Shown here: positions 10,811 through 18,261 of the stretch, one piece after another
Numbering within the stretch: position 1 is the stretch's first letter
Layout of the letters: each line of letters opens with the position of its first letter
Assembly: GCA_044226015.1 (NCBI GenBank)
Contig: JBGAHS010000012.1
Coordinates: forward strand, 41,009 to 105,008
Direction of reading: 5' to 3'
Source of the DNA: Candidatus Obscuribacteraceae bacterium
Lineage (GTDB): Bacteria > Cyanobacteriota > Vampirovibrionia > Obscuribacterales > Obscuribacteraceae
DNA: 64,000 bases
The notes under the pieces: model-generated
Database searches by the model: none
What the model was told of the DNA's origin: nothing
What the model saw: only the letters and a program-made list of their open reading frames with translations
Program-made: the position numbers and the translations under genes

Positions 10811-12208
10811 CTATTCGCGGTCTTTCGGACGAAGGAATAGTCTGATAGGAGCACCCTTGAATCCAAACGACTCTCTGATTTTTCTTTCAAGATAAGCCAT
10901 ATAGCCGCTTGGAGCTAGTTTGTCATCATTTACCTTTAGCACGAAAGATGGTGGGCAAACTGAGACCTGAGTTGCATAATAGATGCGCAGTCTGCGCCCG
11001 CGCTTACTTGATGGCGGTGGTGTGAGCATTTGTGCATCTTGTATAACTTGGTTGATTGCTGAAGTACCAACGCGTTTTTGTGCTTCGCCGAAACAGCGCA
11101 TTGCAGCTTCCAGAATTTTCTTCACACGCTGCCCGCTTTTCGCTGAGACGAACACCACTTCTGCATATTTCAGATGAGGCAATTCCATTTCGACTTTAGC
11201 TATGTACTCATTCATTAGTTTGCTCGATTTATTCGAGACAAGATCCCATTTGTTGAAGACAACTACGGCAGGCTTACCAGCATCGATGATTCGCTGAGCG
11301 ATTTTTTGATCTTGATCAGCGATTTCTTGAGTTGCGTCCAGCATCATTACTGTAACGTCAGATCTCTCAATTGACTGAAAGGCGCGCACAACCGAAAAGG
11401 CCTCGACCCCATACTCAACCTTTGAGCGTCTGCGAATTCCTGCCGTATCAATCAATGTGATTTTGCGCTCTTCAAATTCGAAAACGCTGTCGACAGAATC
11501 ACGGGTGGTGCCTGGAATGTCTGTGACGATTGATCTCTCTTTTCCTGTAATCGAATTTACGATTGACGATTTACCTACATTTGGACGTCCCACGATGGCG
11601 AGAGCGAAGTCTCTTCTTTCTTCTTCCTCTACATTTTGTTCTTCGGGGTAAAGGTGGGCGTATTCGCTTTTCGGTTTGCCGTTTTTCTTGCAGCCATCTC
11701 TCAGGTTAGCTGGCAGCGTTTCAAGAATTTTGTCTAACAAGTCACCGACGCCACCAGTTCCTCTCAGAGCCGAAAGTGAAAGTGGTTCACCTAAGCCCAG
11801 GCTGTAAAAGTCGAGGAGGTTCGATTGGTCTTTTTGATTATCCAACTTGTTGACAGCGAGCAAAACAGGTTTCTTTGAGCGTCTCAGCATGTTGGCGACA
11901 TCCTGATCTGCACCTGTGACGCCAGCCTTTCCATCGACCATGAAGACCACTACATCTGACTCTTCGACAGCTTTTTTGACTTGCTCTCGAACTTGCCGAG
12001 TGATTTCTTCATTGGAATCAGGTAATAATCCGCCCGTATCTACGAGCAAAAATTCGTGACCTGACCAATCACAATCTCGATAGATGCGGTCGCGCGTTAC
12101 TCCAGGGCTATCATAAACAATAGCCTCGCGTCCGCCGACGCAGCGATTGAAAAATGTCGATTTACCGACGTTTGGTCGTCCAACGATGACAATTATGGGC
12201 TTGATCAT
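10811..12208 (-). CDS. der: Ribosome biogenesis GTPase Der (EngA)
   Basis: Two GRPNVGKS P-loops, DTGG/DTAG, NKLD/NKWD and a C-terminal KH-like domain. Confidence 0.97.
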   Translation of the reverse strand: MIKPIIVIVGRPNVGKSTFFNRCVGGREAIVYDSPGVTRDRIYRDCDWSGHEFLLVDTGGLLPDSNEEITRQVREQVKKAVEESDVVVFMVDGKAGVTGADQDVANMLRRSKKPVLLAVNKLDNQKDQSNLLDFYSLGLGEPLSLSALRGTGGVGDLLDKILETLPANLRDGCKKNGKPKSEYAHLYPEEQNVEEEERRDFALAIVGRPNVGKSSIVNSITGKERSIVTDIPGTTRDSVDSVFEFEERKITLIDTAGIRRRSKVEYGVEAFSVVRAFQSIERSDVTVMMLDATQEIADQDQKIAQRIIDAGKPAVVVFNKWDLVSNKSSKLMNEYIAKVEMELPHLKYAEVVFVSAKSGQRVKKILEAAMRCFGEAQKRVGTSAINQVIQDAQMLTPPPSSKRGRRLRIYYATQVSVCPPSFVLKVNDDKLAPSGYMAYLERKIRESFGFKGAPIRLFLRPKDRE

Positions 12209-12296: not shown

Positions 12297-15200
12297 TTAC
12301 TTCTTGTCCTTGTTGTCTTTCCCACCATGATCGCCCTTGGAGCCGAAGACCTTGCCAAGCTTTGGAGCCTGTGCATCGAGGTATCGCACTAGCGTATCTT
12401 TAGCATTATTAAGATACATGGCCATTTCAGTGTCGCCACCCGTATCAGGATGGACACCCGGTTTTGCCATTTCACGCTTCCATGCCTCCAGAACCGCTGC
12501 CTTGCTGAGGTCTTCAGGTCTCAAGCCGAGTAGTTTGCAAGCTCTGCGAATGTCAGGAGCTACGACGCGAGGCATGTTTGCATGTTCATTGGTAGCCTGA
12601 TGTTTTCCACCAACAAATTTGCGATTTACTTTACCGTCATCGCTAGCTGCCGCTTCCTCATGTTTATGCAATCTGCCTTGAACCAGATTGCGCAATTCAT
12701 TGGGATCGAATTTTTGTGCCGGCGGTTTTTCCTCTTCGATTTCTTCGTCGTAATCTTCTTGAGCATTACCAGCGAATCCTGAGGAATCATCAAAATTCAC
12801 TGTTGACGGATCTCCGAATCCACCACTAGTGCCAGCATCCATTGATGATTGAAATGCAACTCCTGGGTCTTGTTCTTGTCCATGACTTTGCGATTCACTG
12901 CCATGTCCATAATCTGAACTCGCGTATCCTGACTCGTTGTTGTAGCCGTACTGACCTGCATTCGGCTCGGCACCCGTGCTGTAATCTGGAGCATATCCGC
13001 TTTGATCGCCATATGCGTTGGGATCCTGTGAGTACGCGTTGGGATCCTGCGAGTACGCGTTGGGATCCTGCGAGTACGCGTTGGGATCCTGCGAGTATGC
13101 ACTGGGATCCTGCGAGTATGCACTGGGATCCTGCGAGTACGCGTTGGGATCCTGCGAGTATGCGTTGGGATCTTGCGAGTATGCGTTGGGATCCTGCGAG
13201 TATGCATTGGGATCCTGCGAGTACGCGTTGGGATCCTGTGAGTACGCGTTGGGATCCTGCGAGTAAGCGTTGGGATCCTGCGAGTAAGCGTTGGGGTCCT
13301 GCGAGTAAGCGTTGGGATCTTGTGAGTACGTGTTGGGATCCTGCGAGTACGCGTTGGGATCCTGCGAGTATGCGTTGGGATCCTGCGAGTACGCGTTGGG
13401 ATCCTGCGAGTACGCGTTGGGATCCTGCGAGTACTCATTTTGTGCTGGAGCTTCATCAGCTCCAAAGAAACTTGAATCCATGTAGTTGGGAACTGCGAAT
13501 CCCTGTGTCTCTGCCTGGTTGTCCTCAGCTGTCCAAGTGCCACCAGCAGTCGATTCTTGTTGAGTTTCATCACTTAGCTGGGGCTCAAAAAGTCCTTCGC
13601 TGAGAGGTTCTTGAATCGAAGTGTCGTCAAACAATCTCTCATCTGTAGAGACCATATCTGGGTTGACGTCACTCTCGGAGTGTAACTTCGGTGGTGAAGA
13701 AGGGCTCACGAGGAAGTCTGCCATCTCGCTGACTGCTTGAGGGTCAACAGTGTGGGCTGCATGTTCAGCTGCCTGAGTGAGTTCTTCCGCGATGGGCTCG
13801 AAACTTACTTGCTCTTCGAATGTAACCTCTTCGGCTGGATGAGTTGAATCATCCATAATAGTGTCAATATCGGAGCCATCGATAGTGGCACCATCTACGG
13901 TGCCACCTTCCGCACTGATACCTTCAACTTCAGGTGAATGGTAAGCAGGTAATTCGTTGGAGAATTCTTCTTGGTGATGCTCCATCGAGGGTGAAGGCTC
14001 GTCGGCTTCAAACTCACCAATAAAATTGCTGGCTTCAGGCGTATGTGCTACAGGACCCAGCTCAGCTTTAGCTGCTTCATAGCCTTGTTGCCAGAAGTCT
14101 TGCTGCGATTCTGCAAGACTTTGTTCAAGTTCGGCACGAGCAGCATCAAAGCCTTTTCGCCATTCCTCTTGAAGTGTATCGGGTGCGACCTGATTTTGCT
14201 CAAGCTCAGCGCGGGCAGCGTCAAAACCTTTCTGCCACTCTTCTTTCATGAGTTCTTGCGAAGGAGCTGCATTCTTTTCGAACTCAGATTTTGCTGAGTC
14301 AAATCCTTTCTGCCACTCTAACTTCAGAAGCTCTTCAGACGGATTCGCTGCTGATTGCTTTTGTTCCTTTTGCAGTTCCTCTCTTGCTTCTTCGAACGCT
14401 TTCTTTTTGATTTCCTCGCGTTCTTTGGCAAAGGATTCTTCAAGTTCCATCTGAGCGAGTTGGTAGCCTTCTTCGAAGGCGTTGTCTCCCGAGGGGACTT
14501 CTTTGGCTTCTCTTTCCTTTTCTTTCTCTCTGTTCTTAAACTCCAGTGCCGCCGTGTCGTAACCTTCGTTCCACCACTCGTCGCGCACCTTCTTCATTTC
14601 TTCTTCAAATTCTGATTTGGCTGCGTTGTAGCCATCATCGTAGCTGCCTGAAACTGCAGCCTTCTCTTCAAGCTCGCGCTTGGCTGTTTCGTAGCCTTGT
14701 TGCCATGACGCTTTACCTGATTCCGCCAACTCTTCTTCGAGTTCATTTTTCGCAGCATCGTAGCCATCTTTCCATGATGCCTTGTTGGCGCTGGCTATTT
14801 CATCTTCGAGTTCTGCTCTTGCAAGGTCATAGCCTTCTTGTTTCGCTTTTTTAGCTGCTTCCTCTATGTCTCCAGCCAGATCTTTTTTCGCTGACTCAAA
14901 ACCTTGCTGCCAGGAAGCCTTACCTGAGTCGGCGAGTTCTTCCTCAAGTTCATTCTTTGCAGACTCATAACCTTCTTTCCAGGCTTGCTCTTTAACGCTG
15001 CCGTACTGCTCTTCTAACTCGAGCCTTGCAGATTCGTAGCCTTCTTTCCAGCTTTCAGCAGGCGTTCTAGTAAGTTCGGCAGTGTTCACATCTTCAGCAA
15101 ATGGCCATGGTCCTTGCTCAACGCTTGCTTTGCCAGCTTCTAAACCCTTCTGGTAGGAGTCTTCCAGAGCCTGTTTCATCTCTTCTTCGAGACCCTGCTC

Positions 15201-15764
15201 GAGGTCTAATTTTGCTGAACTAATACCTTTTTGGAACGCTTCAGTCGCTTTTTTCTCGCTTTCACTATTTGCAGCTTCGAAACCTTTTAAATAGGATTCT
15301 TCGGCTGCCTTGTAGACAGCAGATTCTAATTCTTGCTTACCAGCCTGATTGCCTTGTTCATAAGAGTCTTGAATGCTAAGTGCTAGCACCTGATTAGCGG
15401 CTTCGAGTTCTTTGATTTGTTTAGTAAGTGATTTGTTTCGTTCTTTAAATGCCGCTAGCTCTTCGGATATCTGGTCAATCAGGTCCGAATCTGATGACTC
15501 TTGTGCTTTAACAAGCTCCTCGCTTAGTTCATCGACTCTTCGCAAAAGTCGATCGTATTCTGCGGCAACTATGCCGTGAACGTCACCTCTTGCATACGAA
15601 AGCATCTGCATCGTTTCGGCATCGCCGATGATTTGCTTGTAATCGACGCCAAGCTCTACCGCAAGAGAATAAGGATTTAGGTCAGCCCCCCGTTTCTGAA
15701 GGGATTCCAGAGCGGCTACTGCCTTGTCTCTGTTTATTTCACCCATAACGACTCCATCAGCCAT
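12297..15764 (-). CDS. Large acidic repeat protein with a C-terminal J-domain
   Basis: 1155-aa ORF: coiled coil, about 17 [WYF]xxG[YF]xxA repeats, an acidic linker, 20 YSQDPNA-type heptads, then ACKLLGL...AWKREMAKPGVHPDTGG...LNNAKDTL (HPD motif). Confidence 0.8.
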   Translation of the reverse strand: MADGVVMGEINRDKAVAALESLQKRGADLNPYSLAVELGVDYKQIIGDAETMQMLSYARGDVHGIVAAEYDRLLRRVDELSEELVKAQESSDSDLIDQISEELAAFKERNKSLTKQIKELEAANQVLALSIQDSYEQGNQAGKQELESAVYKAAEESYLKGFEAANSESEKKATEAFQKGISSAKLDLEQGLEEEMKQALEDSYQKGLEAGKASVEQGPWPFAEDVNTAELTRTPAESWKEGYESARLELEEQYGSVKEQAWKEGYESAKNELEEELADSGKASWQQGFESAKKDLAGDIEEAAKKAKQEGYDLARAELEDEIASANKASWKDGYDAAKNELEEELAESGKASWQQGYETAKRELEEKAAVSGSYDDGYNAAKSEFEEEMKKVRDEWWNEGYDTAALEFKNREKEKEREAKEVPSGDNAFEEGYQLAQMELEESFAKEREEIKKKAFEEAREELQKEQKQSAANPSEELLKLEWQKGFDSAKSEFEKNAAPSQELMKEEWQKGFDAARAELEQNQVAPDTLQEEWRKGFDAARAELEQSLAESQQDFWQQGYEAAKAELGPVAHTPEASNFIGEFEADEPSPSMEHHQEEFSNELPAYHSPEVEGISAEGGTVDGATIDGSDIDTIMDDSTHPAEEVTFEEQVSFEPIAEELTQAAEHAAHTVDPQAVSEMADFLVSPSSPPKLHSESDVNPDMVSTDERLFDDTSIQEPLSEGLFEPQLSDETQQESTAGGTWTAEDNQAETQGFAVPNYMDSSFFGADEAPAQNEYSQDPNAYSQDPNAYSQDPNAYSQDPNAYSQDPNTYSQDPNAYSQDPNAYSQDPNAYSQDPNAYSQDPNAYSQDPNAYSQDPNAYSQDPNAYSQDPNAYSQDPSAYSQDPSAYSQDPNAYSQDPNAYSQDPNAYSQDPNAYGDQSGYAPDYSTGAEPNAGQYGYNNESGYASSDYGHGSESQSHGQEQDPGVAFQSSMDAGTSGGFGDPSTVNFDDSSGFAGNAQEDYDEEIEEEKPPAQKFDPNELRNLVQGRLHKHEEAAASDDGKVNRKFVGGKHQATNEHANMPRVVAPDIRRACKLLGLRPEDLSKAAVLEAWKREMAKPGVHPDTGGDTEMAMYLNNAKDTLVRYLDAQAPKLGKVFGSKGDHGGKDNKDKK
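13012..13434 (-). repeat. 21-bp coding tandem repeat, 20 copies (YSQDPNA heptad)
   Basis: The ggatcc-like core recurs from 13021 to 13420, a span of 399 bp = 19 x 21. Most variation is at third codon positions. Confidence 0.97.
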
Positions 15765-15955: not shown

Positions 15956-16234
15956 CTAATATCGCAAGATTTCGAAGCGGGAATATGAGGGGTCGATTTG
16001 CTCAATCCAGACCAGTTCGACATCGTCGACTCGCGCCGAGGGAGGACCCTTCTTGCACCATATAATGAGACTTTCAAGCTGCTCTTCTGGTCCTTGAGCT
16101 TCAACTTTAACAGAGCCATCGTCCTGATTTGCTACCCAACCAGTAAGTCCGAGCAAGCGAGCCTGGTCTGCGGTGCTCTGGCGGAAGAACACGCCCTGAA
16201 CGCGGCCCGTCACTCTCAAGCTGACTCTTTTCAT
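15956..16234 (-). CDS. acyP: Acylphosphatase
   Basis: VTGRVQGVFFR, GLTGWVANQDDGSV and GPPSARV motifs. Confidence 0.95.
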   Translation of the reverse strand: MKRVSLRVTGRVQGVFFRQSTADQARLLGLTGWVANQDDGSVKVEAQGPEEQLESLIIWCKKGPPSARVDDVELVWIEQIDPSYSRFEILRY

Positions 16235-16236
16235 TC

Positions 16237-18261
16237 TTAGGTCAATCGTCTGGAACCAGGTCCTTCAAAAAGCTTGTAAGCCTCTTTGACCATGGTTGAG
16301 TCGCCTACCTCATCTGGGTTAGCTCCAAGAGACGGGCGAGGCGGTTGTGAGGTCTGCTCCCCCGGAGAAGGAGCAGTCGCTGCAGCACTAGACTGCTGGA
16401 CCGGAGGCGCTTCACCTGAAGGTCTGGGCATCGGCGCTGACGTTCTGGCAGCCGCCGAACTAGACTTTTTTGCTGGGGCTGTTTGCTCCGCAACCTTTAT
16501 TTTGATCTGCATCTCAGTGCCCGTAACTGCTTTTGCGGCAGCCTTGATGTGATCCATCTTGCTCTCGAGCATCTTCTGCAAATTATCTTTGAGAACGCCC
16601 ACATTTAGCTCTTTTCCAGATGTGCTTAGTGGAAACGCGTGCGTTGAAGTCAGGCTGAAAGTTGGCAGATGCCTGCGCTGAAGTTCATCCAGAATTTGCT
16701 GCCAGAGATATTCGATGTCATTGCTGAAGTCACCGCCTTGCGGTGCGGCAGCGGACTCACCGGCTTCTGAATAATCATCCTGATAGGCTGCTTCATCGTT
16801 TGCCGTGCCTTGAGATTGAGCTGCAACAGCTGGCTCTGCCTGTGTTGGTTCGCTCGCCGTTGGTGCATGTGGCGCCTGCGCTGCTGCTTGATGAGCTTCT
16901 GGCGAAATGTGTTGTGCTGGTGGTGGAACCGCAGCCATAGGACGTTGCGGTGGTGCAGCCGGCTGGCTCGGAGCATGTGACTGAGCAGGCGCCGGTGCCG
17001 GAAGGACTCGCGCCTGCACGTGATGACTTGCACGAGCGGCGCCGCTGTCGAAGTTAGCACCCTGTGCAACCATTTCTTCCAGCTTAGAAACACGTTCAAC
17101 TAGATCTTTTACGAGGTGAATGTCGTGACGATGGCAAAGTCCGAGCAATCCTACTTCGAGGTGCATAGCTGGTTGACTGCTTCGTCTGCAGGTTTGCTCG
17201 AGTCTGTCGATTGACTCAACGATTTGACTGAGCTCTGCTCTTTCAAATTGACTCTGTTGATCGAGCAGTCCAGAGATATAATCTTTCGAACCCAGCACGA
17301 CTCCTGCTAGTGCAAGATCATCTTGTTTAGCGGCAGCCAGGTATGAGGCTTTCATCATGTTTAGGAAATGCTGTGAGAGTTCCTGAAGCACCACCTGTGG
17401 TTCGCGCCCCTCTCCCAGTAATTTGCTAACCGATTCAATGACCGAATTGCCTTCACGTTTTGCGATTTGTTCACTTATTCTGAGCAAGACGTCTTCATGC
17501 AGCGCACCGAGCAATCTCAGTAAATCGTTTACCGAAGCTGGTTTTCCCGTGCTTGATAGAAGGCTCGCCTGGTCAAGATTGCTTAAAGCATCACGCAGCC
17601 CGCCTCCCGACCTGCGAGCGATTAGCGAAATAGCATCATCTTCGATTTCGATGCTTTCTTTGTCTGCTACGCTGCGAAGGTGTTTCGTCAGAGCTTCCTG
17701 GTTTATTAGCTTGAACATCAGTCTCTGGCAACGACTTACGATTGTCGGCAAAACTTTATGTTCTTCCGTTGTTGCCAGAATAAACACCACCCCTGGTGGC
17801 GGTTGTTCGATTGTTTTTAGAAGCGCGTTGAACGCTTCCTTTGTGAGCATGTGGCACTCGTCTATAATGTAGACTTTGAATTCGCCGCCGACAGCTTTAA
17901 GCGGGGCTCGTTCAATCAGCATACGAGCATCATCAACGCTGTTGTTTGACGCAGCGTCGATCTCAAAAACAGCCGGAGAGTTGCCTGCTGTAATTTCAAG
18001 GCAACAGGTGCAGGTCTGGCAGGGTTTCACTACTGGTTTGCCTGTCGACTTACAGTTTAGTGACTTTGCCAATATTCTTGCGCTGGAGGTTTTTCCGGTT
18101 CCTCTAGGTCCCGTGAAAAGATAGGCATGAGTTAGACGATTGTTCTCGATTGCATTCACAAGAGTGCGATAAACGCCCTCCTGTCCGACCAACTCCTCAA
18201 GAGCTTGTGGTCGATATTTGAGATACAAGGGTTCGTGACGCTTGAACGGCGACTCTTGCAC
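16237..18261 (-). CDS. dnaX: DNA polymerase III subunit tau/gamma
   Basis: LYLKYRPQ, GPRGTGKT, a four-Cys zinc site, EIDAASN, IIDECHML, SRC and GGLRDA. Pro/Ala-rich linker, C-terminal domain and terminal VKEAYKLFEG helix. Confidence 0.97.
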   Translation of the reverse strand: MQESPFKRHEPLYLKYRPQALEELVGQEGVYRTLVNAIENNRLTHAYLFTGPRGTGKTSSARILAKSLNCKSTGKPVVKPCQTCTCCLEITAGNSPAVFEIDAASNNSVDDARMLIERAPLKAVGGEFKVYIIDECHMLTKEAFNALLKTIEQPPPGVVFILATTEEHKVLPTIVSRCQRLMFKLINQEALTKHLRSVADKESIEIEDDAISLIARRSGGGLRDALSNLDQASLLSSTGKPASVNDLLRLLGALHEDVLLRISEQIAKREGNSVIESVSKLLGEGREPQVVLQELSQHFLNMMKASYLAAAKQDDLALAGVVLGSKDYISGLLDQQSQFERAELSQIVESIDRLEQTCRRSSQPAMHLEVGLLGLCHRHDIHLVKDLVERVSKLEEMVAQGANFDSGAARASHHVQARVLPAPAPAQSHAPSQPAAPPQRPMAAVPPPAQHISPEAHQAAAQAPHAPTASEPTQAEPAVAAQSQGTANDEAAYQDDYSEAGESAAAPQGGDFSNDIEYLWQQILDELQRRHLPTFSLTSTHAFPLSTSGKELNVGVLKDNLQKMLESKMDHIKAAAKAVTGTEMQIKIKVAEQTAPAKKSSSAAARTSAPMPRPSGEAPPVQQSSAAATAPSPGEQTSQPPRPSLGANPDEVGDSTMVKEAYKLFEGPGSRRLT
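16431..16489 (-). promoter_or_regulatory. Candidate programmed -1 ribosomal frameshift signal in dnaX
   Basis: GGAG (16489-16486), 14 nt, in-frame A_AAA_AAG (16471-16465), 6 nt, then a GC-rich hairpin (16458-16431). The -1 frame reads GTC TAG. Confidence 0.6.

Follow-up and report, generated by a model that had tools for sequence, protein, structure and literature searches.

The window analysed here, a 64,000-nt stretch of a Candidatus Obscuribacteraceae bacterium contig (JBGAHS010000012.1), contains on its minus strand a dnaX gene (tau form) with a likely programmed −1 ribosomal frameshift site, a reading to which we give a probability of about 0.78. The site lies just past a KH-like domain of DnaX and appears to represent one version of a recoding hotspot that the class Vampirovibrionia (Melainabacteria) has at this position. 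The gene was the only one of its genome to score above the TIGR02397 cut-off.

A sequence-only reading of this DNA had claimed a GGAG 14 nt upstream of an in-frame A AAA AAG at Lys598-Lys599, a −1 slip reading Val and then TAG, and a 6-nt spacer followed by a 9-bp hairpin with one bulge. When the minus strand was read, these elements were found as described (Table 1); the hairpin consisted of 9 bp and a bulged G, and the minimum free energy (MFE) fold gave a tenth pair. The predicted −1 product had 600 aa (65.2 kDa) and the C-terminus ...APAKKV, with the last 75 aa gone, so a product of about 600 aa that keeps the C-terminal folded domain stands as had been stated, as a prediction from sequence. 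The +1 frame was open to 16305 and only the −1 frame closed at once, the pattern expected for a ribosomal −1 site. The open reading frame (ORF) was continuous into the tail and no zero-frame stop was found at the site, i.e. this gene is not "reversed". The GGAG, a Shine-Dalgarno (SD)-like word, lay 15 nt ahead of the heptamer's second base, inside the stimulatory distance range of 6–17 nt (PMC4066793), and a 16S tail with CCUCCU was encoded in this genome. Among the 305 in-frame A_AAA_AAG sites of the genome (in 289 of 4347 long ORFs), 19 were followed within one codon by a −1 stop, 23 had an SD-like word and 7 an equally strong hairpin; all three were combined at this site only, a descriptive count because the cut-offs were taken from the site itself.

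Table 1. Features of the window dnaX and junctions of the split dnaX genes in family f4
Feature	Position	Strand	Remarks
dnaX (tau form)	18261–16237	minus	674 aa, 72.6 kDa; PF13177, PF22608, PF12169; TIGR02397 above cut-off
dnaX layout			AAA+ core and domain III, disordered linker, KH-like domain, second linker, conserved tail
KH-like (DnaA-N/DciA-like) domain	16725–16492	minus	residues ~513–590; kept in predicted short product
Cassette-encoded residues 591–610	16491–16432	minus	SD to hairpin end
Internal SD-like GGAG	16489–16486	minus	14 nt before heptamer (15 nt before its second base)
Slippery heptamer A_AAA_AAG	16471–16465	minus	in frame, GCA AAA AAG; third base of Ala597 and Lys598-Lys599
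−1 frame GTC (Val), then TAG	16465–16460 (TAG, 16462–16460)	minus	
Predicted 3′ hairpin	16458–16431	minus	6-nt spacer after heptamer; −13.3 kcal/mol
Conserved terminal motif VKEAYKLFEGPGSRRLT	16290–16240	minus	absent from predicted short product
f4 junction, g27 (L279, L281, L294)			AAT CCC TAG (CCC_UAG); 3/3 genomes
f4 junction, g73 (L267-L269)			AGT CCC AGG (CCC_AGG); 3/3 genomes
f4 junction, g79 (L274)			TCC AGG (UCC_AGG)

An assembly error at the site was rejected: the frame runs into the conserved tail, and a short-read contig had the same letters over 16200–16900, with the A6 run free of indels (this contig possibly stems from the source run and is not independent). In 8 sequencing runs, no relative with coverage of the cassette was found. 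Transcriptional slippage at the site was also rejected, the run being A6 and the +1 frame open.

Recoding signals were counted in 100 dnaX genes of the order Obscuribacterales (99 of 107 genomes with a domain match and one metagenome locus); six rows belonging to other families, a metagenome locus that duplicated G078 and a copy of the domain outside dnaX in G002 were left out. Scans with single proteins yielded 2 metagenome and 10 genome loci. In a zone of 26 codons after the KH-like domain, a width chosen after the data were seen, a signal (A_AAA_AAG, G_GGA_AAG, C_CCA_AAG or A9-10) was present in 29 of the 100 genes and 8 of 34 genera. Control windows contained one in only 4 of 2019 cases (first linker 0/422, core 1/1302, distal linker 3/295). 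A binomial figure of 8e-10 for this enrichment overstates it, as the zone was post hoc and the genomes include kin. A_AAA_AAG was found in nine genes (the window dnaX, L135, three of genus g3, one of g6 and three of g37), G_GGA_AAG in all 11 genes of g48, C_CCA_AAG in both genes of g11, and A9-10 in eight genes (G002, G006, G011, G012, G025, G027, G066 and G067), one of which was also counted with the A_AAA_AAG group. For E. coli, these three heptamers are the ones singled out as highly prone to shifting (PMC5009743).

The enrichment was also seen at the level of codons. Of the Lys-Lys pairs that these 100 genes have in the zone, 18 of 27 were coded A_AAA_AAG or A_AAA_AAA (outside it, 3 of 61); for Gly-Lys pairs, G_GGA_AAG was the coding in 11 of 19 (outside it, 1 of 253). 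A_AAA_AAG did not occur outside the zone in 67,936 codons (4.4 expected). A −1 stop followed one codon on in 8 of 9 A_AAA_AAG and 10 of 11 G_GGA_AAG genes, together 18 of 20, against a background of 40/1222 (3%) after other AAG codons. All eight A9-10 genes had stops within 4 codons in the −1 frame and within 6 codons in the +1 frame (null medians 16 and 32). On a FastTree phylogeny (95 rows, five short rows excluded), the signals fell into seven separate clades, implying at least seven changes. The four-member clade that holds the window dnaX (support 90) had two genes with A_AAA_AAG and two with A9, so that the three nearest tree relatives of the window dnaX all carried some signal. In three genomes of another genus, the 14 letters that run from Ala to the end of the stop were the same, and GGAG or GGAGG stood upstream.

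Nine A_AAA_AAG-type or C_CCA_AAG cassettes were scored in addition to that of E. coli, and in eight of them SD strength ranged from −4.3 to −16.2 kcal/mol; it was weak (−3.1 and −4.2 kcal/mol) in the two g48 cassettes scored. In g48 (e.g. L117 and L113) and g37 (L080, L094 and L096) the best hairpin was conserved and lay about 20 nt past the heptamer, the usual distance being 5–9 nt; the g37 stems differed by an A-U to G-C swap, and two had GNRA loops.

Signals at this position were not confined to the order. In 101 dnaX genes from other Vampirovibrionia families (100 with the domain), whose genomes are more AT-rich and which mostly lack a signal, the zone had five C_CCA_AAG, five A_AAA_AAG and five A9+ sites in 2800 codons, as compared with 0, 10 and 4, respectively, in 61,221 codons elsewhere. 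Within family f6, four genes combined C_CCA_AAG with a stop one codon on and a hairpin at −15 to −18 kcal/mol; in three of them the stem began 6 nt on and AGGGA or AGGA stood upstream. Among 40 genes from other classes of the phylum, two had A9 in the zone and none had a heptamer with a stop one codon on; hence no claim is made for the phylum as a whole.

Split genes were found at the same place. The dnaX of G175 (f9, L212:1790-2300) is reversed, with GGAGG, C_CCA_AAG, a zero-frame TAG one codon later and the tail in the −1 frame only; among the f9 genes examined it was the only one of this kind. Of the 27 dnaX genes in family f4, seven were reversed, with a stop 10–17 codons past the KH-like domain and the tail in the +1 frame only, so that making tau from them would need a +1 shift at the junctions listed in Table 1. 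Assembly error was rejected for these splits, as the same junction recurred in three and three genomes with divergent flanks. tRNA-Arg(CCU) was matched by pattern in 3/3 g73 genomes, so AGG is not an orphan codon there. The +1 sites CCC_UGA and CUU_AGG have been described in other genes (PMC5009743). Annotation will list the split f4 and f9 genes as truncated dnaX.

The sequence anatomy, the positional enrichment, the placement of stops and the split genes are direct observations. From them we infer that the position just past the KH-like domain is under selection for recoding, because the same 26 codons contain heptamers followed by −1 stops, A9-10 runs closed by stops in either frame, and split genes, and because two close relatives keep the cassette-encoded peptide while their linkers diverge. 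Residues 591–610 were identical (20/20) in P0004 and P0006, proteins from public assemblies that are 96% identical in the core; their linkers were 38–47% identical, and the longest identical run elsewhere in these linkers was 6. P0004 and P0006 resemble each other and count once, only the proteins were compared, and the conservation may reflect adjacency to the domain instead.

In an AlphaFold model of residues 509–674, one confident domain was seen at about 513–590 (predicted local distance difference test, pLDDT, >90) and nothing confident beyond. Its best structural match was DnaA domain I (Z 13.4, root-mean-square deviation (rmsd) 1.5, 81 residues aligned); it also matched DciA (Z 8.6) and, less closely, E. 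coli tau domain V (5fku_E; Z 6.1, rmsd 3.3, 76 aligned). Weak Pfam matches were to DnaA_N-like_STI (35/65 members) and DnaX_C (10/65). From the DnaA-N/DciA fold, the kept domain may bind helicase. The heptamer was placed eight codons past this domain, at K598 of 674 (89%). A tail motif, Y..F[ED]G.GS, was present in 98 of 99 complete dnaX genes of the order. In the sole exception, L014 (G012), a second frame break in the distal linker put the motif out of frame, possibly through a long-read error or possibly as a real feature. In E. coli tau the unstructured last residues are the alpha-binding site (PMC1888804; PMC4703070), and by analogy the conserved tail here is predicted to contact polymerase alpha. 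A second copy of the DnaX KH-like domain was seen in a 379-codon frame that is not dnaX (L126, G002:C33:14293-14496), and short stand-alone matches to the domain were found in some genomes of other classes.

Several observations count against a programmed site in this gene. The folding of the 3′ region that had been proposed as a check did give a hairpin of −13.3 kcal/mol at 6 nt, but its stability was not significant against dinucleotide shuffles (z −1.14; 29 of 200 shuffles of the 37-nt piece were as good), five other cuts of the hairpin gave z −1.5 to +0.5, and the E. coli dnaX hairpin is stronger (−19.1 kcal/mol). The hairpin ranked at the 14.5th percentile among 76 windows of the gene's own linkers. 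SD pairing with the genome's own 16S tail was −5.8 kcal/mol (E. coli cassette, −6.9; dnaX start, −9.3). Among 795 linker windows this falls in the range from the 10th to the 25th percentile, so the SD is weak and not significant alone. A canonical tRNA-Lys(CUU) gene is present in this genome and should damp slipping on AAG (PMC5009743), so that frameshifting is probably less efficient than E. coli's 50%. Insertion sequence (IS) elements use such motifs in 46 of 83 species having both lysine tRNAs (PMC4066793).

Using a strict pattern, tRNA-Lys(CUU) was matched in 92/107 genomes of the order. V_VVA_AAG sites are kept in genomes of the clade that have this tRNA. The pattern missed 3/3 g3 and 5/6 g18 genomes, perhaps through divergence or absence. 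Genus g3 (G009, G115 and G116), where it matched 0/3, is also the one with the most E. coli-like cassette: GAGGAG, A_AAA_AAG, TGA and a 6-bp stem at 6 nt. A divergent tRNA gene cluster, probably a tRNA array, was noted at G000:C10:356333-357100 and includes a second tRNA-Lys(UUU).

Conservation of the exact site is also limited, and to the same side of the scale belong the following. The alignment of dnaX from relatives that the sequence-only reading had suggested went against the heptamer itself, which was found in 0/7 congeners; two of these had A9 at the same place and five had no signal. It favoured the position, which looks selected for recoding across the order. Two signal-free congeners (G003 and G004) kept Lys-Lys as AAG-AAA or AAG-AAG, so the pair has some protein-level or historical basis, and neither SD nor hairpin could be aligned among the seven. 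No recognised signal was present in the zone of 71/100 genes of the order, including all members of g35 (14), g18 (6), g46 (6) and g15 (6); a codon-pair scan of the zone in signal-free genera gave nothing clear, and CCC_AGG and UCC_AGG were not enriched there. Genera and kin are not independent in the order-wide counts, and the g48 hairpin, 97% paired in 11 genes, showed covariation no better than shuffles (39/500). Finally, the late position may not be new. The slippage site of Thermus thermophilus presumably lies at about residue 454 of 529 (~85%), just after a KH-like domain; the switch is independently positioned, as had been claimed, with respect to E. coli and perhaps not with respect to Thermus thermophilus.

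The site could be a product of chance: the Lys-Lys pair with which a Pro/Ala/Ser-rich linker begins would by accident be coded A_AAA_AAG, the GC-rich linker would fold in any case, and no useful short product would arise. The commonness of the heptamer (289/4347 long ORFs), the hairpin's z of −1.1, the absence of the exact heptamer from all seven congeners and the non-slippery Lys-Lys codons of G003 and G004 would fit; lysine usage does not explain codon-level enrichment of 18/27 versus 3/61, immediate −1 stops in 18/20 genes versus 3%, different heptamers in different clades at one position, or split genes with a conserved tail in the shifted frame, and we regard chance as quite improbable. 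A decaying relic, in which an ancestral site is now weak, damped by tRNA-Lys(CUU) and the source of a mere trace of short product, is unlikely as well. Such a relic would agree with the patchy distribution among many signal-free neighbours, the weak SD and hairpin and the second lysine tRNA, but the four cassette elements are intact with workable spacing, the encoded peptide is fully kept in relatives with linkers only 38–47% identical, and the three closest tree relatives each carry some signal.

The slip might also be real but have another use, such as restricting tau or making the ribosome pause past the KH-like domain, with a truncated chain that is degraded and never becomes a clamp-loader subunit. 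The position at a domain boundary would suit this role. It seems highly improbable to us, given that reversed genes make the tail-less chain as their default product, that the short chain keeps domains I–III needed for assembly, and that E. coli gamma is a true holoenzyme subunit (PMC4756838).

Under the favoured reading of a programmed −1 site, we infer the slipping itself, its rate, and the stability and role of its product. The ribosome would reach Lys598-Lys599 while its 16S tail pairs with GGAG and the hairpin sits at the entry channel, and SD pairing and the hairpin would probably slow it. Both lysine tRNAs would then re-pair one base back, Val would be added and TAG would end the chain, steps that are established for E. 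coli and are proposed here. The outcome would be a 600-aa gamma-like DnaX without the 75-aa linker and tail predicted to bind polymerase alpha. This short form would retain domains I–III and would join the clamp loader yet recruit no polymerase, as has been proposed for E. coli gamma (PMC4756838). In relatives the same tail-on/tail-off switch appears to be thrown by −1 heptamers, by transcriptional-type slippage on A9-10, or by splitting the gene so that attachment of the tail takes a −1 or +1 shift. The presence of two lysine tRNAs, which a review ties to polymerase slippage in Thermus (PMC5009743), may explain the use of A9 in sister species.

A wider reading is put forward tentatively, as possible and short of probable: that Vampirovibrionia have reinvented one dnaX switch at one spot by at least five routes, namely −1 heptamers (A_AAA_AAG, G_GGA_AAG and C_CCA_AAG), A9-10 runs, reversed −1 genes and reversed +1 genes, with ribosomal and transcriptional slippage swapped even among sister species. 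In it, the selected gamma would keep the DnaA-N/DciA-like domain and drop the polymerase-binding tail only, thus uncoupling helicase binding from polymerase number. If true, the +1 genes would provide the first case of a dnaX whose tau relies on a shift sensitive to a stop or Arg codon and hence regulatable. The clade offers natural pairs (A_AAA_AAG with stimulators versus A9, forward versus reversed, −1 versus +1, signal versus none), which are useful for seeing how recoding mechanisms replace one another. Long A runs are rare in the genome of the window, A9+ having only 15 occurrences in 6.6 Mb of its ORFs.

Two neighbours of the window dnaX are ordinary. An acylphosphatase gene (15956–16234, minus strand) starts 2 nt past the dnaX stop, and GTPase Der (10811–12208, minus strand) lies farther downstream. 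Between them, at 12297–15764 (minus strand), is encoded an acidic protein of 1155 aa that carries a tandem repeat of 7 residues (YSQDPNA) and, at its C-terminus, an HPD motif; it had no Pfam match, and the motif presumably resembles that of a J-domain.

The closest known system is dnaX of E. coli, where −1 frameshifting occurs at A_AAA_AAG with GGAG upstream, one codon and then a stop, and a hairpin 6 nt on (PMC5009743). The window site has the same gene, heptamer, upstream GGAG, one codon before the −1 stop and a predicted hairpin at 6 nt, and would work like it, but it departs from the E. coli type in two features, the position and the sole lysine tRNA. In E. coli the site is at K429 of 643 (67%) and domains IV and V are lost, whereas in the window it follows the domain-V-like fold and only linker and tail would be lost; in E. 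coli the sole tRNA-Lys(UUU) reads AAG, whereas this genome has tRNA-Lys(CUU) as a second lysine tRNA. In addition, the SD spacing is 14 instead of 10 nt, the hairpin is weaker, and the site is not uniformly kept in relatives. In Thermus thermophilus, dnaX is a single ORF with a run of 9 A, transcriptional slippage, nearby stops in both other frames and two lysine tRNAs (PMC5009743, PMC4320859). This pattern of an A9+ run with near stops in both other frames is matched by the eight A9-10 relatives; unlike it, the window has A6G, shorter than nine, an open +1 frame, an SD and a hairpin, and therefore reads as a ribosomal site.

Antonov et al. (2013) described 17 two-ORF ("reversed") dnaX genes, all −1 and mostly poly-A (PMC3711429). 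As in those genes, the tail-bearing tau would need a shift in G175 (−1 at C_CCA_AAG) and in seven f4 genomes; unlike them, the f4 genes would use +1 shifts at CCC_UAG, CCC_AGG or UCC_AGG, and the window dnaX is not reversed at all. Caulobacter DnaX is shortened at its C-terminus by partial ClpXP proteolysis (bioRxiv 10.1101/2022.11.10.516041), another route to a C-terminally shortened DnaX without recoding, and such proteolysis could serve the signal-free genera. Tau and gamma made by frameshifting, slippage, reversed −1 genes or proteolysis are already known (PMC5009743, PMC3711429 and the Caulobacter preprint); what stands out here is the tail-only cut, the swapping of mechanisms at one position and the +1 split genes. 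In the literature searched, in which coverage of subscription papers was thin, no report was found of +1 dnaX or of this dnaX site in this class. The reason for which bacteria produce gamma is, according to the Caulobacter preprint (bioRxiv 10.1101/2022.11.10.516041), still unclear. E. coli gamma loses the helicase- and polymerase-binding domains together, so that the two losses are inseparable there; a tail-only loss reached repeatedly by unrelated mechanisms points to the loss of polymerase binding as the selected feature, which is directly testable.

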